NCBI GenBank assembly: GCA_977020255.1
Contig: CDROCS010003074.1
Coordinates: 248,001-312,000, forward strand
Source of the DNA: Obrimoposthia wandeli
Lineage: Eukaryota
Direction: 5' to 3'
Length of the DNA: 64,000 nt
Shown piece by piece: positions 35,201 to 64,000 of this stretch; position 1 is the stretch's first letter, and each line of letters opens with the position of its first letter. The translations under genes were made by a program, and so were the position numbers. The notes below the pieces were generated by a model that saw nothing but the letters and a program-made list of their open reading frames with translations, was not told the DNA's origin and ran no database searches.

Positions 35201-38200
35201 ATGCGATACACAGGGTAGTTCATGATGTCACGTTCAAGTCAGAAAGTTACCTTCGATTATTGTTGGGAATTGGGCTGGCCTGTGCTTCGCTCCTCCACGC
35301 AGAACGAGCACCAGCAATCGCAGATGGTTTTCCAGCAGTGTACGATGGGTACCACTGCTTGGAGGCTGTCCTGGTTGTACACGTAGTGTACTGAGAAGGT
35401 CGCTCTGCACATCGGGCAGGTTGGGAAGTCGAGGGGTTGTTGCTGTTGGTTGGGGGGATCCACGTCTCGAGGCATTCGACGTGGAAGAGGTGGTCGCAGT
35501 TGTTGGGCTTGGTGTAGAAGTCCACGATGCTCTCGTAGCAGATGGAACATTCTCCAGACATTACTGTGGGAGGGTTGATGTTGAATTTGGGCTCGATTGA
35601 GGACTGGTGGTTGTGTGATGTTTACACAAAAGTGGTTTGATTTTGTCGATCTGATAAACAGTAATAACACCAACACTCTCCGAAATTCTTCCAACAGAAT
35701 ACCACCTGTACATATACATCCTCTTGGTTGGGTTCTAACATGATGAATCTTTAATGGGACTAAAATTTTGACCTTTTATTTTGAAAATATTTTTATATAC
35801 TTTTAAAATGAGGTATGTTTTAATATTTAATAGATTAAGATTTTTCTAAACTTTCCAATGTACTTAATTTGAAAGTCAGGGTGTGCATAATATTTTTTTT
35901 GCAATTTTTGCATTGCGACAGAACCCTAAATCGGGGGTGTACACAAGAGTGTATTATACACAACCTTTTACGGTGTATGTATAATATTTTAAAAATAGAA
36001 GTTGCACAGATTTTAGTAATAAACACTTAAATTACATTCGCATCTTTAGAAATTGGAAATTGAAACCAGGTTGTGTTTTTTGAAATATATATTTTCAATT
36101 ATGAATACAGTAGATGAAAAAAAGCTCTTTAGAACTGTTTTTACATGGAATACTTTGATCAAATTGCACAAAATGTTTTCTAGGGAATTTCTAGTGATCA
36201 TATATCTTTGGTATTATGTGTATGACTTAATTATGCAAAAGTTAGACTAATTGTATCGAATTACGAGTAGAAAATCGTGCTTGATTGTTTGAAGATAATA
36301 CTTTAATAATACATAGCCAATTGTTTATCAAATTTGTTTCTTATCGCTAAAAGTTTTATTTTACAATGTAAATCGTAAATTCTTTTCTGGTTCATTTTTC
36401 TATATCTTCAACAAAATATGTTTAATTTATTTTATGCGCACTATTAAAATTTGCTAACAGTAAATGTTTTAAATTGTTTATCAAGAAGCAATTTGTAAGA
36501 TGTACTTGTCAATAAGATTTGATATAAATAAACGATGTTTAATTAGTTAACCTTATTTTTATTGTTAAAGATTTAGTAATTTATGTAATATTTTAAAACG
36601 GCAAATATAAATATTACATAAATATATTATATATAAATAAAAGTAGTAAACTATACATTAAAATAATTTGAATTTTATTTAAGAGTACTCTTTATTCCCA
36701 TTGACATAGTTGTCTTTCAACACCATTGAATGAAACAAATATCGCTAGATAGTCTCCGTAAACCCAAAGAAAAGTAACATTTAAAAATATAATGATGAGA
36801 AAATTTAAATAAATTAATGGTTATGAGGAGCTAATATTTTAACATTGTTTCTGCAATTATCTTCGAAAGTTCTTTGTAAGTATGGTACTGATTTGGGATT
36901 TCCACTTTTAAATTCTAACTTTTTACCAATGCACTAAATTTTAATATGCATATAAATAAAGGATTACAAATTCAAATTATTTTGAGGTGTTATAACCTTC
37001 TCAAATAATTGTATACTTTCGGGAATTTATTGAGACCTTTGCCGACATTACGATAAGGTCATTACATAATTGGAATCCAGTGAATCATTTAAAATCCTCA
37101 CTATGTTTTGTCAAATAATAACATTCCTGCAACGAGAGTGATAATAAATGGAACAATAAGTCACCAACTCCAAAAGACATTGAATCAAATCTAGTACGAA
37201 ACGTCAAGCATCATGAGTACAATACCTTCTACATTGGAGAGTTCGTGTCATCTTTGAACTACATGGGGATCAGGAGATCCTAAAAAATATTTAAAATATC
37301 CTGCTAAAATATTTTTTAAACGCTGCAACTTTACATATATAACTCAAAAATAGGCTAATGTTTTTAACAGATAGAAAATTTGACTTAAAAATTTTATTAT
37401 AGATACACATGGTAATAATATAGTAATTTACATTTCCAGGAAGAAAATTCCGATCATTTCTTAGCTATTTCTTGTATTGATAAAAACTTCTTTCTGCTGC
37501 ACTGGTATGTTAATAAGTTAAACCGTGCCTGTTTGTTTCTAAATATTTCAATAATAATCAATTGCGTACCAAACTATTTAATTATGAATATTTCCTTCAA
37601 TATGAATACATTCTAATAAATAATAAGTTTTTGGCTGATTAATATATCTTGCTAAAATTTTCAAATAGTGGTTTACTTCATTGTACTTTCGTCAGCACAG
37701 ATAAATAATTTTGTTGTAAAATCATTTAAATACTTAGCTTAAGTTTGATAGCTAGCTGTAATAAATTTTGACGACAATTTCTTTCAGAAGGACACTTCTT
37801 ATCTATTTGAGCGAGTAATGTTCAAATCGATTCGTGCTTTAACTCATATAAAGGGATGTCAGCTTCCAAAAAGGCTTTAGTTACTTCTTCAGTATAATTT
37901 GACGTAGGTATAAAAGATTGTGAAGTTATTTTTGTTTCGGAATAAAAACTTATCACTTTTGTGACTGATCAAAGAATCTTTTTCTCACAATATACAATTG
38001 TGGAACATAGATTACGATATAATTCCTCGTTTAGAGATTCGATAAACTCTTCGGAAATTTCCTTCGTATTCAGTCGGACATTACATATATAAAACTTTAC
38101 AACTATTTATGTTGCATTAATTATTTTTTAATGGAAAATGAACCTAATTAAACATTTTGAGATAATTAACCGTAGGCTATAAAATGGTAATTTTGCAAAA

Positions 38201-41200
38201 TTATAGGTATATTTGTAAGCTCGAAAACGTTTAGTTGATTCTTCATTTGCATAACAAAAATTTTAACTAATTATTATCTTGTATTTAAATTCATTGAATT
38301 GAATATCTAAAATTAAAATAGTTTAAAACAAAATCCTAGTTACAGTCTTATAAAAATATTGAATTTAGCACTAATATTTAAAGTGTAAATGTTTGAGCAG
38401 TGTATAAAGCTTGCAGACCATATATTTGGTGATAAATAAATGCTAGTTTTAACAATAATTAATTGAAAGATTTACCAGTCTTTCTGTCTATGTAGGTCGT
38501 GACTCAAAGGTCGCTGTTATGCAGTTGTCTGAGCTACGGAGACAATCGGATATTTTGCCTCTTTCCAAAGCCGACATGAAACGTTTCTGTATGGACCGCA
38601 CAAAAGGTTCGTGTGTCTTTAACTAATCATATATTTTATTTACATATCGATCTTTGCAAATCAAGGGTTTTACATTTTCTTTATTCCACTTACAAATTAT
38701 TTATGAAAATGCTTTTAAATAGCCTATTTTAAAATTATCTTTTGAAAATTGATTTAATTAATTATTGATTACAGATAATTAATTGTCCGTCTTGAATAAT
38801 GCAGGCTGCCACCTGTTTGAGCTGAGTCGCGCTCATATCCAGCCAGTTCGGCTGGTGGTTGCTGTCAATCGCCGCCTCCAGATATACGCCTGGCGATGCA
38901 CAACTGCCTGCAGCTCCCTATCGTCCTGGAACCAGTTCACAAGCAGCGCTATTATTGCTTCCTTCCATTTTGTCAGGGTGAGTCTCTATTGAGCTCTGAA
39001 AGGGTAGCTAGAGAAAGGTTTCATGCCTGTTTAAAGGTTAACTGTGTAAAAGCTGTTGGTGTATATCTGAAGGAGACTTCTGCAGGAGTTGCCGACATTT
39101 GAGATGGCACAAGTCGTATCAGTGCTGGACTCCAACTCAGGTGTTCACTTGTGCATCGGCTACAAGAACCAGTTTGACCTGATACACGAGAAATCCGGCG
39201 ACACGGTGCATCTGTACCGCACTGACATGCTCTCTCGCTCCGCACCCATATCGATCCTGGACCTCTATTCAGAGGAGGAACCGGAGCTGCTGCTTTGCTA
39301 CAACAGTACGTATCGTTCAGACCGACTGTATATCGTCGTCAGAACTCTTGATTTCTTTTGCCATGTACCTACCGAAGTCGTGTTCAGTTTCCTCGACACA
39401 CATTCGACACATGCTATCTTCTGAAGACTTTTCTACTTGTCTACTTGTCCAATCAGATCCAAATAGGTCGGTCCACCCAATTGTTGCTCGAAATCCAAAT
39501 CATCACAACACAATTACTCTTGTTTAGCCTTTTCACCCCCCTTACACCTGAACAAATGCCATTACATTTTATACCAGACTCTGTTCGTCACTATAAACAC
39601 ATTCTTCTAATCGTCACTGTACTAAACTAGCCAACTGGGACAGAAACACAATGGTTATATTTTGTCTTGATTAAACAATCGCATCACGTTTTTATGCATT
39701 TACTTTCAGGCATCGATAATTGAAGCAAACATCCGAAATAGGCACAAATATCCTCCCTACCTTCGATTCTGCCGTAGCCTTAGTTCCTAAATTCACTGTG
39801 TTGCTTGTTTATGTTGAAACCCCAGCTTCCCACATACGCAACGACTGTGCCATGGTTTGTTGTGCTACACACTGAGAAACGAAACATTTGACAAACGATG
39901 ATGGTGTACGTGATAATTTCAACTTTGTTAGATTTAATATACCATTGTTTTGAAGCTAAGATGCCCTATCGTTGAACTTCATATGCATCTTCTAGGTTTA
40001 ACAGATACTACCTTCCACAACGGTTGGTTCCTCTATCACAGTCTATGGACAGTCTTCTCTATCTTTAAACTCATCTTTAATACAGCACAGTATTTTATAA
40101 TGATCCCATCAAACAAAATCGATTACGGGAGAATTTTGTAAAGGAAATTTGGTAAAGATTACTTGGAACCTGACTGATTATCCCCATCCTGAATAATTTC
40201 AGTTGTTGTTGGTTCTTCAGTTTTTGTTCAGTTATTATTATTTTATTCAACAATTCTCTCTACAACAAGTCTTAATTCATATATAATTTCCTATTTAATT
40301 AATTTGAATCTCTTTATGCAGGAACTTGTCACTTTCAAAAAATCCGCAAAGCCAACCAAAGTCCTGATGCGCCTGGAAATACAGAGGCCGATTTCAGTTG
40401 GAACTTTGAGCCTAAAAATATCAGTAAGTACACAATAATTTTTACAAATAAATCATTAAAAAAACTCATTACTCATTATCACAAAATGCTCAAAGAATAA
40501 TAATGCAGTTAAAAGCAACATTTGTCAGTAACAATTAGAAATATGCAAAAGACTCAGTCAAATATCTGGGATTTCTTCTTAATATGTATTCTCTAGTTAA
40601 CAATATTGTTAATAGCTATAACTATCAAAAAAGGCAAATAAGTAAAATCGGAATATATTTCTCAAAATAATGTTCATGAATGCTATCGTCACTTTTAGGT
40701 TTGACTCCCATTGTTAAGTACAGTACAATCTTCTGCAACTCTATCTTAACCGATTACATGTAATAATGGAAAAATCCGTGAGGATAATTTACAAATGATT
40801 CATAAAAAAATGGTCAAAATCTATATAACTACATTAACTTCGGAAAGAATGGTGACATTGAGTAAAAATACTTTTGCTGATTCTTCAGATATATGCAAAT
40901 AAGCAATAAAATAGTTTTCCATTAGCAGTAAGGAAGTGGAATGAGTTAGAAACACTCAGAATACACATAAAGATGTTTCCGTTTAGAGAATACTACAGTT
41001 AACTTTCCAAAGTTGCTGATTTGTGGAGCACCTTTGAATAATAATTATTACACTTTTAAAAAATTAGTGAAATTTTAAATATATGTTTTGTTACAAATCT
41101 CAAAGAAGGAAAAAACTTTATAGATGAAGATTGCTTGGATTGTGTAGTTGGAGACATTTTAGAAAATCGATAGTTAGTTAGCGAGTAAATATAGATCTTC

Positions 41201-53720: not shown

Positions 53721-54760
53721 CCGTCTATCTGGTAGACAAAATTTGTTTTTGTTCATATATTTGTGAAAAATAACTTTAAAAGGTTTTTGTATATGAAAAA
53801 TAATAATAGCTATTAACCATAATAATAATAATTTAAATATACATTATTATGAATCGGTAAACGAGTCTTCTATGCTGTTTAGCATATTTAAACAAATATA
53901 TTTGGTCAGGCTTTCTTTTGATTGAGACTTATTGAAAATCATAATAATATAACATATGAAGAGTTATTGTTGAAAGGTTCTTTACAAATAAGCCACTTTG
54001 AACAGTTAAGTGCAGTATATTCTAAACAAAAATTACTTAATGTGTTTTCTGAATTCTTAAATATTAGTACACTATTTTAGTGCTAATGGAAAACTGTCTT
54101 CTTTTTTCAATTTAGATATTTGGATTGCCAGTTCTCTATTATTGTCACTTCATTTCAATTAATTGCATATTGAATTTCAATTTCTAGAAGTTTTCACAAA
54201 TATGGAGATGGCTTTTAAACTGGACATTGTATACTCTATTGTAGGGGTTCCGCTACCTTTTTAAAAATACTTAAAACCATAAAGTGAAAAATGAATAAAA
54301 CATTTAAAGTTAAACTACTGAAGTATTTATTAAGTATTTATTGTAGGCCTATGCTCTGGTAGGTTAAGGCGAGTAGAGTTAATGCCAATTTTTGTAAATT
54401 TATTTTTTATTAAATTTCGGCTAGCGGAACCCATTTTGTGAACCCCTGCTCTATTGGAACATTTATTGGAAGTCAATGTAGTTCAAATGTATAGTTCTTT
54501 TACCATCTTTCCTTTATAGATAATTTCTATGTTATCGCCGTTGCTTTGTTCATGAATATTTGTCATCTCTCTAGATATAACTGTGAAAGATTGTACAATA
54601 CTGAGTCATGGAAGTCTAGCCTAGAAGTGTCAATATCGTTCATAGACATTGTAATGATTTCCTTTGATAAATATATTCTGAATTTACTTATTTTTCGTAT
54701 CTGTTAGCTACAGCTTTTAGCAATATTGTCAAACTGAGAATCCATATCCAGTGTATTATC

Positions 54761-55317
54761 AGTAGGTAGAAGGATGGAGTCTAGATCACTTGACCCCCCC
54801 CCTAAAGGGTGTCACACCATAAGGATGTCTTGCCACACCATAAGAGTATATGTTGCCTCACCTCTGGTCTAGTCTCCACCCTTCTTTTTGTGGTCTAGTC
54901 TCCACCCTTCTTTAGGCTAACCACTATGATCGTCCATAATTCAAAGAGTCAAGTGGTCTAGTCTCCACCCTTCTTTTTGGCTAATCACTATGATTGTCCA
55001 TAATTCAAAGGGTCAAGGTCAGTTTTGACTTGAAACTTTGAAGGTATAATTAAGATCATGTGAAAGTTCACACTTAAAAGTTAAGGAATGTATGACGTAA
55101 TCATACACACACTATTCTATGTGAAAATTTAGGCTAAAGTTCACTCTTATCAGTTAAGGAATGTGGTTTTTAACACACACACACTATTCTATGTGAAAAT
55201 TTAGACTAAAGTTCACTCTTATCAGTTAAGGAATGTATTACGTAATCACACACATACTATTCTATGTGAAAATTTAGATCAAAGTTTTTCCCAGGCTTAC
55301 ACATCTAAAGAATTATG
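54761..55317. repeat. Left TIR (~557 bp) with 3 subterminal aagaagggtggagact motifs (reverse complement) and 3 ~72-bp repeats
   Basis: Reverse complement of segments of 63121-64000. Confidence 0.95.
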
Positions 55318-55386
55318 TTAAATTTGTATTAAATCAAAAAAAAAAAATAAGAAAGAAGTCAGAGAATAATACAAAATTAAACACAT

Positions 55387-56394
55387 TTAATATGTAATTT
55401 CATAATGTCCATAAGCGCGGCTTCTATTTTTCTCGATCCAATAGCGTTTGTCATCTGATGAGCTGAGAGCAGTCTTTTGTATTATGATTGTGTATAGTTG
55501 ATGATTTATTGTTCCAAACTTCTTTTGTGGTATAGTATATGCATTACCGTTTTCATACACGTCTAAATATGTTTGATGTACAACCGTTGAACCCTTAAGA
55601 TTTACTCCTTTTGCTTTATTATTTTCAAAGTCATCTTCAAACTTAAGTGAATAACATTTACAAAGTAAGAAAATCCATTCTTTATACATTCTTCCTTCCG
55701 ATTCATCTTTAAATAAACCTATTTTACTATTAAATTTATTAGAATATAATGGAACATTCACATTATAATTTGACGTATCTAATAATCCATCTGTAATCAT
55801 TTTTGGTAACAACTGTTTTCTTAAATTAACGTTTTTACATTCCAAAAAGAATGAGTCGGTATCACCGGCAACTATATTAATTGAACAATTGAATAAATTA
55901 CGATATATTTGCAAATCATGATACTGAAGAGTATACATTCGTAATTTGCTAAGGTCTAGTACAGCTTGGCCTATATAATTTGGTCGATCGAGACAAATAA
56001 AGTCTTTTCTTAATAAAACAGCTATTAAATTATCATGAATTTCTAACGATGTTTTAGTATGTATATTGTCATTTATTTTACGTTTTCGTGACGGAGTAGG
56101 AGCTGAAATTACTATGTTTGATGGTTCGTTAATTATATCAGTTCTTTTGCTTAAAGCCGGTACTTTAAATAATTTTTTCTTACTATCATTTTCATATTCT
56201 TTTAAATGACTAACATGTCGACTATAAAATAAGTTGTAATCAACATTTTCAGTGCTTAAACATTGTGGACATATGAAATAATTTATCCTTTTGTATGAAT
56301 AACCAAAATATTTTTTCATTATATCATGACATACTTGAGGATTAAAATGTGTATCCGAATAACAAAAATTTGAATAAGTTTTACATATACTCAT
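55387..56394 (-). pseudogene. Internally deleted protein-primed family B DNA polymerase (C-terminal part only)
   Basis: LDRPNYIGQAVLDLSK, GDTDS, IGLFKDE, KAKGV, DDKRY and YGHY are present; no exonuclease, motif A or motif B. Confidence 0.9.
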
Positions 56395-56454: not shown

Positions 56455-56480
56455 AAAAATATATATATATATATAAATAC
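56455..56480. promoter_or_regulatory. (TA)n/TATAAA tract between the divergent polB and TBP-like genes (candidate bidirectional promoter)
   Basis: atatatatatatataaata within the 110-bp divergent intergenic region. Confidence 0.4.
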
Positions 56481-56504: not shown

Positions 56505-57059
56505 ATGTTAACAAATATTAATTATAAAGGAATTTGCTTAGATGATGTATCCAAATTAAAATTTCGAACACGACCAGAACAATACGTTTATAAAGCCAAA
56601 GATTATACAATACTTATTTTTAGAAATAAGAAATGCAGGATTATGGGATGTAAGGTACCTATTAAAAATATTTCTTACCCTTTAAGAATAAATATACTTG
56701 GTATTCAATCAATTACGGTATGTGAAAATTTAGATCAAAGTATCAATCTATTTAAATTATGGAATGTATTACGTAATGCATGTTCATTTGACCCTGAGGT
56801 TTTCCCAGGCTTAAGATTAAATATTTTCAATCCATTGTGTGTAAATATTTTCACATCTGGAAAGGTCGTAATTTTAGGTCTTAGAAATTTAGATTTTCAA
56901 AATCAAGTTAACGATATCATGACATACATTAAAAAAAATTATATAAATACGAAACAATTTCTAATTAAATCATTCAATTTTAAATGTCTTATAAAGCCGT
57001 TCAAAAGTATTACGAGTATGATATGTTCTTCTTGGCATCTGCATGGATTCATCCAATGA
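56505..57059 (+). CDS. TATA-binding-protein (TBP)-like protein
   Basis: FDPEVFPGL..IFNPLCVNIFTSGKVVILG matches TBP repeat 2; TILIFRNKKCRIMG matches repeat 1. The natural stop may be near 56946 if the A8 run has one extra A. Confidence 0.8.
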   Translation: MLTNINYKGICLDDVSKLKFRTRPEQYVYKAKDYTILIFRNKKCRIMGCKVPIKNISYPLRINILGIQSITVCENLDQSINLFKLWNVLRNACSFDPEVFPGLRLNIFNPLCVNIFTSGKVVILGLRNLDFQNQVNDIMTYIKKNYINTKQFLIKSFNFKCLIKPFKSITSMICSSWHLHGFIQ

Positions 57060-57130
57060 CTATGCCAGTAACATTATCGAAAACTTCGTACAATTACCGA
57101 GTCTCTGATTTTGACGACCGAATATTTTGA
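56984..57130 (+). CDS. 48-aa small ORF (MSYKAVQKYYEYDMFF...), unknown function
   Basis: ATG in an A-rich context, below the ORF-track cutoff, fills the gap before the ATPase. Confidence 0.35.
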   Translation: MSYKAVQKYYEYDMFFLASAWIHPMTMPVTLSKTSYNYRVSDFDDRIF

Positions 57131-57218
57131 TGTTTAATAAATATTTAATAAAATGTTGTTATTGTTATAAACATGTACTTATTCTGATATATTTATTTTA
57201 TATTAATATTTATATATA

Positions 57219-57848
57219 ATGTTATTAACAAACAATTCGACTTTTCAAGTAGTAGGACCAAGTGGTAGTGGAAAAACTTTATTTGTTTGTAAATTATTAA
57301 ATTCAAAAATGTTTAAAAATAAATTTAATAAAATATATTGGCATCAAGGTGGTGACGGAGAAGCTGGTTTAACAAACCAAGAATTTAATAAAATAAAAAA
57401 CATTAAGATTATTAACGGTTTTGATGAAAATTGGACGACAAGACTCGTAAAAGGTGATGTAATTGTTATTGATGACTTATATCAAGAGGCTAACAAAGAA
57501 TCTGATTTTAATGATTTATTTACAAAAATTGCAAGACATAGAGAAGTTACTGTAATTTTTATAACTCAAAATTTATTTCATCAAGGAGGAAATCATCGTA
57601 CTCGTAATCTTAATGTACATTATTTGATTTTATTCAAAAATCCTAGAGATCAAACAGTGATAGATTTTATTGCTCGTCAAGCATTTCCTCATAACAGGAG
57701 TTATTTAATTGATGCGTTTCATGATGCTACATCTTTACCTCATGGTTATTTATTTTTAAATTTTACTCAATCATGTCCTGATGATTTAAGAATTGTTACT
57801 GATATATTTAACCGTAATGGTATTACAGTCTATAAACAAAATAAATAA
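57219..57848 (+). CDS. A32/FtsK-like genome packaging ATPase
   Basis: Walker A GPSGSGKT, Walker B VIVIDD, ARHR...ITQN motif. Confidence 0.93.
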   Translation: MLLTNNSTFQVVGPSGSGKTLFVCKLLNSKMFKNKFNKIYWHQGGDGEAGLTNQEFNKIKNIKIINGFDENWTTRLVKGDVIVIDDLYQEANKESDFNDLFTKIARHREVTVIFITQNLFHQGGNHRTRNLNVHYLILFKNPRDQTVIDFIARQAFPHNRSYLIDAFHDATSLPHGYLFLNFTQSCPDDLRIVTDIFNRNGITVYKQNK

Positions 57849-57868: not shown

Positions 57869-58282
57869 ATGAATTTTAAAAAGAGTATTCTTAAACATAG
57901 TAAAAGGACAGATAAAGATGAAGTTAAAAAATTAATAAACACTGTATTATATGATCGTAATAATATTGAATTTTCAAAAAGTTTACCTTATTTTAAAACC
58001 TTAATTGACGTACCAAAAACGAATAAAATGAAAATGTTGAAATCATTTCCAATTTATGTAGTTGATGATTTAATAAAAATTTTAAATAAAATAATTTATG
58101 GTAAAATTAAACCTGATGATAATATTTTAAAATATAAAAATTCATTAATAAATTTAGCAAATTCACGTGGTAAAATTAATAAAAGAAACATTATTTATAA
58201 TCAAAATGGCGGATTCATATTGGCCCTACTGCCCGCTATAGCATCAGTAATAGCTAGTGTTATAACTTCAAGATGGGGATAG
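57869..58282 (+). CDS. Polinton conserved small protein with a C-terminal QNGG|FILALLPAIASVIASVI peptide (candidate virion membrane-lytic/core precursor)
   Basis: Basic protein with an adenain-type xGG site preceding a hydrophobic tail. Confidence 0.65.
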   Translation: MNFKKSILKHSKRTDKDEVKKLINTVLYDRNNIEFSKSLPYFKTLIDVPKTNKMKMLKSFPIYVVDDLIKILNKIIYGKIKPDDNILKYKNSLINLANSRGKINKRNIIYNQNGGFILALLPAIASVIASVITSRWG

Positions 58283-58504
58283 TTCTGCCGTAGTCTGGAA
58301 AAACCTAGTATGTCACTTTTAGCCTATTGTGAAAATAAACACATATGAATGGTCGACTTGCTATAGCCTTAAATCAATTATGGTATTCTTTCGTTTTATA
58401 CAAACATATAAACATTCTTTCGATTAAAATATATTTAACTTTTATAATAATGGGGATAAACAATACAAAGTTGTCTAACTTATTTATAAATTCTTCATGA
58501 TGCA

Positions 58505-59530
58505 ATGGAAAAGATTTGGAACAATCCAGAAGATCCAGACGGGTATACAGGGTTAGAAAAATTGACAAAAAGAGTCAAACAATCAAAAACAAACACACAA
58601 AAATGGTTAAGAAATGAATTATCATATAGTCTGAATAAACCTTTAAGACGTAAATTCCCTACTAGATCATATAAAACTAATGGTATTAATTCGTTATGGC
58701 AGATGGATTTAATGGAAATGATTCCTTATTCTTCAGTAAATAACGGATTCAAGTATATTTTAACTTGTATTGATGTATTTAGTCGTTTTGCAAGGGCAGT
58801 TGGTGTTAAATCAAAATCGGGTATTGATTTATTACATGCAATAGAATCTTTAATTGTTGATGATGTACCAGTAAATATCCAAACCGATGAAGGTAAAGAA
58901 TTTTTTAATTCACATGTTAAGAAATTATTTAAAACTGAAAATATCAATCATTATTCAGTATATTCTCAATATAAAGCTGCAGTAGTTGAAAGATTTAATA
59001 GAACGTTAAGAGAACGGTTAAATAAATATTTTACTAAACAAGGTAATAAGAAATGGGTGAATGTATTACCAAAAATTATTTATGCTTATACTAATTCTAA
59101 ACATAGAGGTTTAGATGGTTTAAAACCTGTAGATGTAAATAATAAAAATGAATTTGATATTTTGTTGAAACAAAATCTAAAAGAAAAGAAAGTTAAATCT
59201 AAATCTAAAATTGATGATTATGTTCGAATATCAAAAATAAGTACAAGTCCATTTATTAAAAATTTTAATCAAAATTGGAGTGATGAGGTTTTTCAAATTC
59301 ATGATATTAATTATAAACAAAATCCAATAATGTATATTTTAAAAGATATTGATAACGTCATCATCAAAGGAAAATTTTATAAACAAGAGTTACAATTAAT
59401 TGATAAACCTAAACTATATCGAATACAAGAAATTTTAGAAACTAAAGGTCGTGGTAAGAATAAACAATATTACGTAAAGTGGCACGGATACTCTGAACCT
59501 TCTTGGATATTTGCTTCTCAAATTGAATAA
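58505..59530 (+). CDS. Retroviral-like (rve) DDE integrase with C-terminal chromodomain
   Basis: WQMDL, QTDEGKEF, VVERFNRTL, YYVKWHGY; uninterrupted 341 aa. Confidence 0.96.
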   Translation: MEKIWNNPEDPDGYTGLEKLTKRVKQSKTNTQKWLRNELSYSLNKPLRRKFPTRSYKTNGINSLWQMDLMEMIPYSSVNNGFKYILTCIDVFSRFARAVGVKSKSGIDLLHAIESLIVDDVPVNIQTDEGKEFFNSHVKKLFKTENINHYSVYSQYKAAVVERFNRTLRERLNKYFTKQGNKKWVNVLPKIIYAYTNSKHRGLDGLKPVDVNNKNEFDILLKQNLKEKKVKSKSKIDDYVRISKISTSPFIKNFNQNWSDEVFQIHDINYKQNPIMYILKDIDNVIIKGKFYKQELQLIDKPKLYRIQEILETKGRGKNKQYYVKWHGYSEPSWIFASQIE

Positions 59531-60543
59531 TGTCAAAATATATTATTTTACCTAGTAATAGTTGTCCAAGTACTCAACCTAACAATACAGCCAATCAATT
59601 TACTGTAGATTGGGAAAACTCTCTAAATTTAGATGGTGAATGGGAGGTTGCCTTGACTGAATTTGTATTTAATTATACTCCTTTAACAATACAAACTAAT
59701 TCAAAAATACTTTATAAAACGGAAAAGATAGAAATGAAAACTTTCGATGTATCTTTTGCAATTTTAAATGGATTAATTTTTAATAATTTAAATACTGTTT
59801 TCAATTTCAAAATTACAAAGGATCAAAAATTAGAAATAAGTACAATTAACAGTATTCATCGAATGTTGTTAAAATTCGAAACTTTAGAAGAATCAAAAAT
59901 TATAGGTTTTAATGAAATACAAAAAATTTCTAGTCATGTTATAACAAGTGATGAAATTGTTGACATAAATAAAAATATTCATGCTAAAATGAGAATTACA
60001 ATTTATTCTTTAGCTGAATATGAATACGAAATAAAATTTAATCAAAATTATTTGATACAAGATAGTTCTTCATTATGTAATATTATAGCCAGTAAATGTA
60101 ATGAAATTTTTAAAAGCTGTAATATAGATTCAAACGGATTATTTGATATTTTAATAAAGAAAAATGTAAAATCAGTTTTATTTGACGAAAAACTTGCATC
60201 TTTATTAGGTTTAAATAATGTTTTCTTTGAGAAACGAATTAAAGGTTTTCAAAAACCAACACTTTCTAGCTCATATAATCAAATGTATATTTATACTAGT
60301 TTAACAGATTCTGTCTTAGTAGGATCTGATTATGTTCCACTGTTAAAGTCTATTTGGTTAAAATCATTAAAATATCGATATGGAGATGTAGTAAATGTTA
60401 AAATTGATAATCCAATGTACTTGAAAATGAGAGATTCAAGTATTAATAGAATCGAGGTAAATATACGTGATGATTCTGGTAATTTAATTCCATTTTCATA
60501 TGAAGCAAAAACTAGTTTAACTCTTCATTTACGTAAAGTATAA
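59530..60543 (+). CDS. Minor capsid (penton-like) protein
   Basis: ILPSNS...NTANQFTV...GEWEVALTE N-terminus and IEVNIRDDSG...TLHLR C-terminus; position next to the MCP. Confidence 0.85.
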   Translation: MSKYIILPSNSCPSTQPNNTANQFTVDWENSLNLDGEWEVALTEFVFNYTPLTIQTNSKILYKTEKIEMKTFDVSFAILNGLIFNNLNTVFNFKITKDQKLEISTINSIHRMLLKFETLEESKIIGFNEIQKISSHVITSDEIVDINKNIHAKMRITIYSLAEYEYEIKFNQNYLIQDSSSLCNIIASKCNEIFKSCNIDSNGLFDILIKKNVKSVLFDEKLASLLGLNNVFFEKRIKGFQKPTLSSSYNQMYIYTSLTDSVLVGSDYVPLLKSIWLKSLKYRYGDVVNVKIDNPMYLKMRDSSINRIEVNIRDDSGNLIPFSYEAKTSLTLHLRKV

Positions 60544-60580
60544 ACAATATAAATATATTTAAAATATAAACATATATAAA

Positions 60581-60970
60581 ATGAATACATCAATTATAAA
60601 ATTTTATAGCAAAAGTCAACAGGGCGGTGAACTTCCCTATTTCATTGGTAAACAATATGGATCTGGTTGGTATCAAACTATTTCTAGATTAGCTATTCCA
60701 TTTATTAAAAAAGCTACAAGTGCTGCCAATGTAATTGGTGAAACGGTAGGAACTGCGTTAACAAATCCAAAAAACATAATTTCATCTCTCAAAGAAAATA
60801 CAATCAAAGAAGTCAAAACTTTGATTCCAAAATTAAAAAATAATGCTGTTGAGAGTTTAAATAAAGTCGCAAATTGTGTTGAACAAAATGGAAAGGGTTT
60901 TAAACGTAAAAGAAATAATTTAAATAGTATAAACAAACGTCTTAAAGGTACTATTTTCCAAAATGACTAG
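60581..60970 (+). CDS. Basic core-protein-like precursor with adenain-type sites
   Basis: QQGG|E, QYGSG|W and QNGKG|F sites; KRKR tail. Confidence 0.6.
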   Translation: MNTSIIKFYSKSQQGGELPYFIGKQYGSGWYQTISRLAIPFIKKATSAANVIGETVGTALTNPKNIISSLKENTIKEVKTLIPKLKNNAVESLNKVANCVEQNGKGFKRKRNNLNSINKRLKGTIFQND

Positions 60971-62183
60971 TATAAAATCTGAATTGTGTATTTTCGATAG
61001 ACCACTACCTCAAGTAGTGATTGAAAATTCAAGTTTTGAAGAAATATTTCCAATCAATTCAATTACTGGAAAAAATTTAAATGACATAGAATTTAATATT
61101 CATGCATCTGAAGAAGATTATCTGGATTTGAATGATACTTTGTTAAATATTAAATTAAAAGTTGTAAATGAAGATGGTACTGATTTAATGAAAGATAGCG
61201 ATGTAACTCCAGAGAATTACATGTTTCAAACTTTGTTTAGAGATGTTATTCTAACACTTAATAATGTAAAGGTTGAAGGAGGAAATGGAACGTATACTCA
61301 TAAGGCTATATTCGATACTCTTTTGAATTTTAGTAGTGATACCAAGTATACTAACCTTGAATGTTCCGGGTATGATGATGATGCAGAAAATCGTAAACAA
61401 TGGATTAGTGAATCTAAAATATTTTCATTGTGTAATTCAATTAGATTAGATTTCTTTGATCAACCAAAATATTTGATTCCAGGGATTAATGTTCATTTGA
61501 GATTTATGAGAAATCAGCATAATCTTTCGCTCTATTCAGAAACTTCAAAACCAATTATTCAAATTCTAGATGCTAGATTGTATGTTAGAAGAGTAAAAGT
61601 TGATTCTTCAGTAATGATTGGACATCAGTTAGGTTTGCAAAGTCAGAATGCAGTTTACCCAATTAGAAAAACTCAGTTAGTAACATATTCAATTCCTCAG
61701 GGTTCTTTAGAACTTAATAAAGATCAAATATTCGGAGACTATCGTTTACCCAAGTTCATTTTGATTGCTTTCAAAGATACACCTCAGGGTGGTAAGGAAT
61801 ACAAAGTTAAATCTTCTACGTTCAATACATTTAATGTTTCAACAATATCATTAGCTAGAAATACAGATTATCGAGAAACTTATAATCTAGATAATAACAA
61901 TTTTTCATTAGCATATATGCAGTCAATTATTCGAAATATGAATATTTTAGATAAAAACGTGAATAATGGTATCAGATTTTCTGATTTTAAATCAGGAAGT
62001 TCGATTTTCACTTTTCTATTAGCACCAGATTTTGATATAAACACTACTCAAGTGCCTAAAACTGGTAATTTAAGACTTGAAATTAGATTTAATTCTCCTT
62101 TGACCCTTCTAACAAGTGTTTTGATTTACGGAATATTTGATTCCGAAATTCAGATTACGAAAAATAAAACTGTGATTGAATGA
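60963..62183 (+). CDS. Major capsid protein (double jelly-roll)
   Basis: KSELCIF, IEFNI...YLDL..TLL, AVYPI, GNLRLEIRF motifs; 406 aa, uninterrupted. Confidence 0.9.
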   Translation: MTSIKSELCIFDRPLPQVVIENSSFEEIFPINSITGKNLNDIEFNIHASEEDYLDLNDTLLNIKLKVVNEDGTDLMKDSDVTPENYMFQTLFRDVILTLNNVKVEGGNGTYTHKAIFDTLLNFSSDTKYTNLECSGYDDDAENRKQWISESKIFSLCNSIRLDFFDQPKYLIPGINVHLRFMRNQHNLSLYSETSKPIIQILDARLYVRRVKVDSSVMIGHQLGLQSQNAVYPIRKTQLVTYSIPQGSLELNKDQIFGDYRLPKFILIAFKDTPQGGKEYKVKSSTFNTFNVSTISLARNTDYRETYNLDNNNFSLAYMQSIIRNMNILDKNVNNGIRFSDFKSGSSIFTFLLAPDFDINTTQVPKTGNLRLEIRFNSPLTLLTSVLIYGIFDSEIQITKNKTVIE

Positions 62184-62217
62184 AGTAAGCTTATTGTATA
62201 TTATATTCTTTATTTAA

Positions 62218-62556
62218 ATTAGTACTTTAGAAATTCATAAATCCGGAAAAATATTATTGAATAACAAATTTAATGGAGTATATTCATTGGATAAAATTCC
62301 ATCATTAAAACCCGGAGGCTACATTATCAATACTCATACTTCAAATCTACCAGGCGAACATTGGATAGCAATATTCGTTGACAGATTCGAGATTCGAGTG
62401 TTTGACCCTTTTGGATTCTATTATCCTTCAAAGTTGGTGTCTACACTTGAAAAAGAAAACATTCCAGTCTACTATAATCGAGTTAAATGTCAGAATCCAT
62501 TAACTAAAAACTGCAGGCCTCTGAGTCTTTTATGGTTGAAACTTCAACACAAATAA
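62218..62556 (+). CDS. Adenain-like cysteine maturation protease, start codon apparently ATT
   Basis: INT...GEHW, FDPFG, Q......C; the frame is open from att-agt-act-tta-gaa (xSTLEI) at 62218 with no ATG. Confidence 0.8.
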   Translation: MSTLEIHKSGKILLNNKFNGVYSLDKIPSLKPGGYIINTHTSNLPGEHWIAIFVDRFEIRVFDPFGFYYPSKLVSTLEKENIPVYYNRVKCQNPLTKNCRPLSLLWLKLQHK

Positions 62557-62607
62557 TTTTAAGTATAAACAAATATATCATTATAGTATTTCATTTTATT
62601 TTTTCAA

Positions 62608-63059
62608 ATGGCTTTTATTGATTTAGAATGTTTTATTGATAATAATGGAGAATTTATTCCAAAGAATTATGTATAATGTATGTGAATGATATGACTTGTC
62701 CATTTCATTACGTGTTTAAAAATCAAATACCATGGAGTAGTTTATCATTTACAGTTAAAAGAAAAAATCTATATTTGATAAATCATCATCATCAGTTATC
62801 CTGGTTTGAAGGTGAAAGCTCTGATATTCATATTGATGATGTTGAAACAATATTCTATGTTATGGATTCTATTGATGGAAAGAAAATTAATTTAGTGAAA
62901 CGAATGTTTCCAAATTTGAGAATTGTGAATTATAATAAAAGTTTCAAAAATTTAAAGAAAATGCCAAAAAATATTCGATGTCCGTTTAGAAAACACGGAA
63001 AACATTGTGCTTATTTGAAATGTTTTTCTCTATGTATTGATTATGTAAATTGTATATAA
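62608..63059 (+). pseudogene. DEDD-exonuclease-like ORF with a frameshift near 62661
   Basis: MAFIDLECF...FIP / KELCIMYVND...HYVFK...W; one extra A joins the frames. Confidence 0.55.
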
Positions 63060-63120
63060 ATATATTTATTAAGGATATTTTATTTTAATATATAATTTAT
63101 GTTATTTAAATAAATTTTAC

Positions 63121-64000
63121 CATAATTCTTTAGATGTGTAAGCCTGAGAAAAACTTTGATCTAAATTTTCACATAGAATAGTGTGTGTATGATTACGTAA
63201 TACATTCCTTAACTGATAAGAGTGAACTTTAGTCTAAATTTTCACATAGAATAGTGTGTGTGTGTGTTAAAAACCACATTCCTTAACTGATAAGAGTGAA
63301 CTTTAGCCTAAATTTTCATTATGGACGATCATAGTGGTATACCAAAGAAGGGTGGAGACTAGACTACTTGACTCTTTGAATTATGGACGAACATAGTGGT
63401 ATACCAAAGAAGGGTGGAGACTAGACCACAAAAAGAAGGGTGGAGACTAGATCACAAAAAGAAGGGTGGAGACTAGACCACTTGACCCTTTGAATTATGG
63501 ACGATCATAGTGGTTAGCCAAAAAGAAGGGTGGAGACTAGACCACAAAAAGAAGGGTGGAGACTAGATCACAAAAAGAAGGGTGGAGACTAAGCCACTTG
63601 ACCCTTTCATAGTGGTATATCAAAGAAGGGTGGAGACTAGATCACAAAAAGAAGGGTGGAGACTAGATCACAAAAAGAAGGGTGGAGACTAAGCCACTTG
63701 ACCCTTTCATAGTGGTATATCAAAGAAGGGTGGAGACTAGATCACAAAAAGAAGGGTGGAGACTAAGCCACTTGACCCTTTCATAGTGGTATATCAAAGA
63801 AGGGTGGAGTCTAGATCGCTTGACCTCCTCCCCCTCCCCCCTAAAGGGTGTCACACCATAAGGGTGTCTTGCCACACCATAAGGGTATATGTTGCCTCAC
63901 CAGAGGTGAGGCAACATATACTCTTATGGTGTGGCAAGACATCCTTATGGTGTGACACCCTTTAGGGGGGGTCAAGTGATCTAGACTCCATCCTTCTACC
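63121..64000. repeat. Right TIR (>=880 bp) with 12-13 aagaagggtggagact motifs and a terminal palindrome
   Basis: cataattctttagatgtg at 63121 mirrors 55300-55317; the last 101 nt mirror 54765-54867 apart from a shorter C/G run. Confidence 0.95.

Follow-up and report, generated by a model that had tools for sequence, protein, structure and literature searches.

Nucleocytoplasmic large DNA viruses encode diverged proteins of the TBP fold, and they carry their own RNA polymerase. Beta- and gammaherpesviruses encode a TBP mimic that recognises TATT late promoters and works with host Pol II, as described in the available text of PMC4893493. According to the available text of PMC12529657, the herpesvirus mimics (EBV BcRF1, KSHV ORF24 and HCMV UL87) are large proteins that keep four intercalating Phe, are missing the acidic TFIIB residues and operate within a six-protein complex; the acidic stirrup residues are needed for contact with TFIIB and are missing in KSHV ORF24, and a polar DNA face marks the KSHV mimic as well. 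Polintons (Mavericks) are characterized, in the main texts of PMC8097293 and PMC11161782, by pPolB, an ATPase, an rve integrase, an adenain protease, terminal inverted repeats and a 6-bp target-site duplication; intact vertebrate members are described there as intron-free, and neither main text contains the words "TBP" or "TATA". Polintons lack an RNA polymerase, and how they control their virion genes is an open question; it has also long been asked whether a regulated virus phase exists in them.

A TBP-like gene in a Polinton-type element is indicated by the label "TBP" in the Fig. 5 legend of Starrett et al. 2021 (PMC8502044; preprint 10.1101/697771), given for MELD viruses with adintovirus-like PolB, and the gene so labelled could belong to the family described below. 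In the portion of PMC8502044 available, however, this is a legend label, without text on family, structure, motif or function, and one supplement of that paper holds no match to TBP or TATA. The same work, in its available parts (PMC8502044 / 10.1101/697771), separates Alpha from Beta adintoviruses by pfam03175-type or divergent PolB. Whether such ORFs had already been reported in other Polintons, a point that the initial annotation of this locus left undecided, is partly answered by that label. A cestode TBP paper (PMC13134418) offers, in its available text, general surface maps only, and, subscription papers, Repbase and preprint supplements aside, we found no literature on the present family of small TBP-like proteins (mini-TBPs) or on the TATAAACA box discussed here.

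The element and its genes

The window analysed here is the whole stretch of 64,000 nt, from an AT-rich animal with very short introns. The TBP-like ORF (56505..57059, plus strand, 184 aa) and the motifs quoted for it in the initial annotation are present, and its assignment to a Polinton is borne out, the gene lying within an element that has terminal inverted repeats and a 6-bp target-site duplication and that extends from 54761 to 4 nt beyond the window. The left duplication, ATTATC (54755..54760, plus strand), recurs past the right end, which lies 4 nt outside the window. The left terminal inverted repeat region (54761..55354, plus strand) begins AGTAG, and the right one (63084..64000, plus strand) comprises tandem repeats and an internal hairpin (63836-63970), which is near-perfect, with 66-nt arms and a 3-nt loop, and is absent from the left terminal repeat of the window copy. 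Sister copies are mostly 11-14 kb long, and the 6-bp duplication was detected in eight of nine fetched copies.

The gene order is pPolB on the minus strand followed, on the plus strand, by the TBP-like gene, a 128-aa ORF, the ATPase, a 137-aa ORF, the integrase, a putative minor capsid gene, a 129-aa ORF, a putative major capsid gene, the protease and a 150-aa ORF. In the window copy, pPolB (55387..56394) is internally deleted at about 56040 and is about 2.6 kb shorter than in sister copies, two of nine of which carry it as a frame of 1212-1221 aa; a genome search with PF03175 matched copies adjoining the TBP-like gene, and hmmscan of one copy gave only Endonuclease_7, so that the two disagree on whether the polymerase is of pfam03175 type. 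The 128-aa ORF, which has no Pfam family, persists as a 5' remnant (56984..57130), about 230 bp having been deleted at 57115-57118. The A32-like packaging ATPase (57219..57848) matches PF04665 and the rve integrase (58505..59530), which bears a chromodomain, matches PF00665. Between them lies a basic 137-aa ORF with a hydrophobic C-terminus and no family match (57869..58282), which we take to be pX-like. Neither the 337-aa ORF (59530..60543) nor the 406-aa ORF (60963..62183) has a Pfam match; from position for the former, and from size and position for the latter, we take them to be the putative minor and major capsid proteins. The conserved 129-aa ORF (60581..60970) lies between them, and downstream are the adenain-like protease gene (62180..62556), for which PF00770 scored below the cut-off in the window copy and above it in a relative, and the 150-aa ORF (ATG at 62608), frameshifted in the window copy. 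The element thus carries each of the six Polinton/Maverick features listed above.

Two side observations concern the surroundings of these genes. In most lineages and metagenome loci, the TBP-like gene is found together with a fast-evolving ORF of 115-130 aa without a Pfam family (for example at 56984-57130 of the window, L111:441-824 and L029:659-1012), which may resemble an OB-fold single-strand DNA-binding protein. On the host side, the window contains a CNH-domain exon (39104-39424) and a RING-finger ORF (35247-35561).

The host genome (1.35 Gb) holds at least 150 copies of the TBP-like gene at 96-100% protein identity; among the best 150, a sample biased by being ranked by score, 134 are without a stop and 16 have one. 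Four further lineages share 39-58% identity, and in most cases the gene adjoins the same ATPase and integrase. When a distant capsid protein was the query, 101 rows of the host genome matched at 33-35% identity; IMG/VR searched with the ATPase and capsid profiles yielded no Polinton relative, and its six TBP matches were distant, giant-virus or archaeal-like.

No RNA polymerase gene was found among the ORFs of the element. In three of the five host lineages (loci compared: L141:4142-4182, L146, L145, L142 and L157), the TBP-like gene has a predicted GT-AG intron of 35-40 nt, each time at one and the same Gly codon, a pattern matched in five of eight copies tested; the lineage of the window and one other have no predicted intron in this gene. 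The protease gene has a predicted GT-AG intron of 38 nt after a 5-nt first exon (window 62180-62222), with 39 nt in a second lineage. Such predicted mini-introns, which distinguish the TBP-bearing group from vertebrate Mavericks, point to Pol II and the spliceosome, and from them we infer that Pol II would be the polymerase of the element. One intron of a host TBP measures 47 nt. The host has at least five TBP-family loci (L126-L134; G000 C238, C968, C60 and C1092), two of them head-to-head on one contig and two intronless and strongly diverged.

Fold, residues and relatives of the TBP-like protein

The Pfam profile PF00352 matches only residues 67-130 of the ORF, corresponding to the C-lobe, with an E value of 7.3e-12 and 45.4 bits against a cut-off of 22.9. 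Residues 1-66 searched alone gave no TBP match with the Pfam profile, so that the first half-repeat is unrecognisable by a sequence profile. Among PDB sequence matches at E<=1, 35 of 36 are TBPs. Seventeen close relatives of the ORF were found, and an AlphaFold2 model built on a 17-sequence alignment has a mean pLDDT of 86.9, with values above 85 in every block to residue 150 and below 70 beyond, and forms a two-lobed saddle across both lobes. Foldseek gave 44 matches to this model at E<=0.001 (best 1.7e-9), all of them TBPs among those listed. With an independent aligner, model residues 1-150 were superposed on residues 66-240 of yeast TBP at Z 13.1 (rmsd 2.6, 148 aligned), the top five rows of the ranking being TBPs and the next unrelated fold following at Z 6.5. 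Profile search and structure prediction therefore both uphold the TBP assignment of the initial annotation; its statement that both half-repeats are recognisable holds for the second by profile and for the first by fold only, as seen in the predicted model.

Relatives of the ORF stop at about 146-160 residues, and the conserved protein ends near residue 150, leaving a low-confidence tail that overlaps the next gene. When aligned profile to profile with single host TBPs, the protein was covered only in part, and the ESM Atlas, queried with one relative, returned generic TBP clusters only. A complex prediction pairing residues 1-150 with host TFIIB, represented by an exon-encoded piece of 93 residues, scored 0.02, in a setting where the fold of the partner is uncertain and DNA is absent.

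The ORF encodes a member of the TBP fold family, yet not a canonical TBP. In common with cellular TBPs (yeast 7o4i_O, human 29vf_O and Sulfolobus 1mp9), it has the saddle fold in both lobes, three intercalating Phe, the C-lobe helices, a Pro after the third-lobe Phe and the E-P-E stirrup; it differs from them in length (about 150 versus about 180 residues), in having no helix predicted in residues 1-60, in the loss of the first Phe, in its polar DNA face and in belonging to a separate clade.

Residues were counted over 144 family rows, with the rows filled at each column as denominators; human TBP numbering was taken from chain 29vf_O, and the mapping of N-lobe residues rests on a multiple alignment across gaps. 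For yeast TBP, we assumed a numbering offset of 98. This value agrees with the residues tabulated in the available part of PMC12529657. Three of the four DNA-kinking Phe are retained, as had been read from the sequence at the outset (F39 in 121/122 rows, F100 in 139/140 and F116 in 136/138). The first N-lobe Phe is absent family-wide, with Pro in the aligned column in 111 of 115 rows, leaving the canonical set of four incomplete, and this loss could weaken DNA bending by the mini-TBP. The acidic TFIIB stirrup, E/D-P-E, is kept as a sequence feature, with E or D in 134/140 rows at its first position and E in 136/140 at its last.

Compared with canonical TBP, the N-lobe is trimmed by 12 residues before F39 and by 13 after G48 (N4-F39 spans 35 residues versus 47, and G48-Q68 spans 20 versus 33), and the model, in which residues 1-60 form no helix, lacks both N-lobe helices, as opposed to the two helices per lobe of the canonical fold. 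In canonical TBP, the N-lobe helices dock TFIIA, TAF1, Mot1 and Brf1. Longer, "intermediate" family members (P0087-P0164) retain N-lobe helical segments, so that the family grades from near-canonical length down to the compact form.

The DNA face carries N6, R45, M47, S69, T71, R104, C112 and N114 in place of V, V, T, N, V, I, V and L, respectively. Positions that are hydrophobic in canonical TBP are thus occupied across the mini-TBP family by Arg, Asn, Met and Cys, and of the two central Asn one is kept while the other is Ser or Thr. The equivalents of yeast I194, V203 and L205 are R (112/140), C (112/139) and N (138/139), and the N-lobe equivalents of yeast V122 and T124 are R (121/123) and M (139/139). 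According to the available text of PMC1636458, mutations of I194, V203 and L205 in yeast TBP alter TATA specificity, and the 3' half of the box is read by the N-lobe, with C at positions 6-8 selected against. Judged from the alignment, the DNA face of the mini-TBP is remodelled, polar and invariantly different from that of canonical TBP.

A profile search over 1.84 billion representatives of clusters at 50% identity gave 52 matches at E<=1e-30, and the best 150 profile matches were classed as 129 members of the mini-TBP family and 21 canonical two-repeat TBPs. A survey for syntenic homologues, suggested in the initial annotation, located Polinton core genes (ATPase, integrase, capsid or protease) beside the homologue at five of 15 metagenome loci with close matches; of the other loci, three show a homologue of the 150-aa ORF and the remainder are too short to tell.

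Two kinds of promoter box

A (TA)n run ending in the canonical TATA box TATATAAAT (56460..56478, plus strand) lies in the space from which pPolB and the TBP-like gene diverge; the box is 35 nt upstream of the TBP-like ATG. This run corresponds to the (TA)n-TATAAA tract first noted just upstream of the gene. The TATATAAAT core is constant among the 12 copies listed of 20. The length of the TA run differs between copies, and a long run was rejected as a meaningful feature since it varies in this way. In ten of 16 rows the TBP-like gene has a canonical TATA[AT]A[AT] at -33 to -47; the five host lineages are all among these, with the box at about -35. In the 70 nt before this gene, none of the 16 rows contains ATAAACA. 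The TATA tract looks like an ordinary host-TBP site.

The word TATAAACA occurs ten times on the plus strand and never on the minus strand of the 6.7-kb core of the element, where 0.7 would be expected and none of 200 simulations reached as high a count. Outside this core, the window has ten more matches, dispersed through 54.8 kb of host DNA; the terminal repeats contain no TATAAACA. Six of the ten core boxes, all on the plus strand, stand 35-53 nt before a start codon: an intergenic one at 57166..57173 (53 nt before the ATPase ATG), and those at 57831..57838 (38 nt before the 137-aa ORF), 58407..58414 (43 nt ahead of a short Met-Gly frame at 58450; the integrase ATG follows at 98 nt), 60539..60546 (42 nt before the 129-aa ORF), 60928..60935 (within the 129-aa ORF, 35 nt before the putative capsid ATG) and 62564..62571 (44 nt before the ATG of the 150-aa ORF). 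Four of the ten are not at this distance from any start codon, namely a second copy at 60565, two inside the integrase gene (59312 and 59378) without an assigned start and one at 62036, 144 nt upstream of the protease gene. The short Met-Gly frame (window 58450-58500; also L031 and L032) overlaps the integrase start and, in several lineages, follows a box of its own at 31-43 nt; it is possibly a myristoylated virion peptide.

The arrangement recurs beyond the window copy. ATAAACA precedes the ATPase in all eight rows, in the non-coding DNA of seven lineages, and across five lineages the motif precedes 15 of 29 downstream ORF starts, versus 5.6% of random windows. The other 14 starts have no box at that distance, the integrase and putative minor capsid starts being mostly without one. 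Six metagenome loci (L029, L031, L032, L033, L036 and L041) have the box 31-42 nt before starts, one of them with a capsid protein that is only 31% identical, and ATAAAC[AG] is absent from three GC-richer family loci, which are 1.1-3.0 kb long with the virion genes out of view, and from one 1.1-kb locus. Inside the 129-aa ORF, the box before the capsid gene is written ATA-AAC in seven of seven lineages, and in the codon usage AAC accounts for 13-40% of Asn codons and ATA for 20-48% of Ile codons. The recurrence of these rare codons in every lineage argues that the DNA word is kept, beyond the peptide alone.

As in herpesviruses, several of the putative virion genes are preceded by a variant TATA-like box, here TATAAACA; the "late" timing that this would imply is a prediction only. 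The 128-aa neighbour, which has a canonical TATA at 56940 in the window, shows canonical TATA in two lineages and the box in two others, so that the early/late split is not clean. Because the upstream tract resembles a host-TBP site and TATAAACA precedes the downstream genes, the mini-TBP would have a different target than the TATA tract. The initial annotation had offered two functions for a minimal TBP. Redirection of host Pol II is plausible from fold, family and selection, with the modification that its target would be TATAAACA and not the upstream TATA tract. Less support goes to the other function, competition with host TBP on TATA-rich promoters, as TATAAACA points elsewhere.

Candidate readers of the box and history of the family

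We propose that the mini-TBP is probably the promoter-specificity factor of the element for its virion genes, predicted to bind TATAAACA and to recruit host TFIIB and Pol II. Host TBP would first transcribe the TBP-like gene from its canonical TATA box. The mini-TBP would then read TATAAACA, which has at position 7 a C disfavoured by cellular TBP, favouring it over TATAAAAG, and once bound would recruit host TFIIB and Pol II at the packaging, capsid and neighbouring genes. The missing N-lobe helices may free the mini-TBP from regulators of host TBP, and an early-to-late switch would in this way be built from one 150-residue protein.

A comparison was available within the same genome, in 20 kb around each of 10 partly covered copies of a second Polinton family with a PF21738 capsid. 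No TBP-like gene of their own was found in these PF21738-type Polintons over the stretches covered, the sole TBP-like match lying within a nested piece of the TBP-bearing family. Their gene-bearing spans contain 14 boxes in 82.0 kb (0.17 per kb), or eight in 72.1 kb minus the nested case, compared with 37 boxes in 30.2 kb (1.23 per kb) for the five TBP-bearing lineages and 0.18 per kb for host flank. The motif precedes one of 49 control gene starts and none of 10 capsid starts. This control is one family, of different ancestry from the TBP-bearing group and not a close relative, so that gene and motif may co-occur by descent alone. The PF21738 family (L170-L189) is also more decayed, has a PLA2-like domain on its integrase, often carries nested pieces of the TBP-bearing family and has T-run/A-run sequence before its start codons in place of the box.

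With the link between gene and motif resting on this single outgroup family, a host factor, either a forkhead protein or a host TBP paralogue, might read TATAAACA while the mini-TBP acts on ordinary TATA boxes or elsewhere. We consider this unlikely, albeit the strongest of the alternatives. ATAAACA matches a forkhead-type consensus site, and the host TBP-family loci, diverged intronless ones among them, would supply candidate paralogues. However, in five host lineages and six metagenome loci the box has a single orientation and stands, much as a TATA box would, about 31-45 nt ahead of start codons, it is at background in host flank and in the co-resident family, which shares the same host factors, and the DNA face of the mini-TBP is invariantly unlike that of canonical TBP.

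If the mini-TBP does not activate these genes, it could be a decoy or repressor that titrates TFIIB or occupies TATA-like sites of host or own genes, or an architectural protein that bends DNA in replication or packaging. With the acidic stirrup kept, both N-lobe helices missing and one Phe lost, it has features that a dominant-negative TBP might show. A pure TFIIB decoy, however, needs no nearly invariant new residues on its DNA face, the box precedes genes that the virus must switch on, and the terminal repeats are without TATAAACA; we rate this group of roles as somewhat less likely still than a host reader.

The proposed role as a specificity factor also agrees with an old and constrained family. 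In a quick IQ-TREE analysis of 78 rows (a chosen subset) and 167 columns, in which long branches call for caution, all 49 family rows form one clade with an SH-aLRT of 100 and a stem of 0.91. This clade is apart from three host TBP-family rows, archaeal-like TBPs and three viral-contig TBPs, and its sister group is without resolution. The phylogeny against host TBPs proposed in the initial annotation thus separates the two, and a clade that excludes host TBPs indicates that the mini-TBP is not a recent capture from the host. Fold searches in BFVD matched TBP homologues of Heterosigma akashiwo virus, mimiviruses and asfa-like B263R; in the tree, by contrast with the shared viral and diverged character of such proteins, the three viral-contig TBPs fall outside the mini-TBP family.

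For the 55 pairs that 11 lineages provide, selection was assessed on the second part of the gene, with a mean pS of 0.79 and a mean pN of 0.30. The dN/dS ratio was 0.02-0.36 in the 21 pairs with estimable dS, and 34 pairs were saturated. By comparison, pN is 0.25-0.38 for the putative capsid gene and 0.17 for the ATPase. These substitution patterns indicate that, between lineages, the TBP-like gene is under purifying selection, and functional by evolutionary criteria, as opposed to the neutral evolution that had been raised as a counter-case; young insertions are expected to drift neutrally. A decaying captured fragment of host TBP without function, which would suit a Pfam match to the C-lobe only and stops in 16 of the best 150 copies (as expected after insertion), is already largely refuted and most improbable, given synonymous saturation with pN similar to that of the putative capsid gene, one old clade excluding host TBPs and many invariant positions.

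The system resembles the herpesvirus mimics, as far as these are covered by the available text of the papers cited above, in having no RNA polymerase of its own, a polar TBP fold and a variant TATA box before putative structural genes. It differs in being a lone domain of 150 residues with the acidic stirrup kept, in a genome of about 13 kb with around ten genes. Homology to ORF24/BcRF1, with their extra domains and five partner proteins, was not found, the fold match of the model to a BcRF1 model is weak (E 1.2e-3), and there is no sign of common descent between the two. By analogy, the mini-TBP likely works like a herpesvirus-type late factor without being one. The evidence is evenly balanced on the broader view, in which one re-specified mini-TBP would give a widespread clade of animal Polintons a genuine early-to-late switch, the smallest viral pre-initiation system so far and one that evolved apart from that of herpesviruses.

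With a defined protein and a defined 8-bp box, the regulation of Polinton virion genes becomes testable. The mini-TBP would reveal the extent to which TBP tolerates trimming and re-specification with its TFIIB surface intact and, if the proposal is true, would form with its box a natural orthogonal TBP-promoter pair. If true, it would also mean that these integrated elements pass through a programmed phase of virion production.
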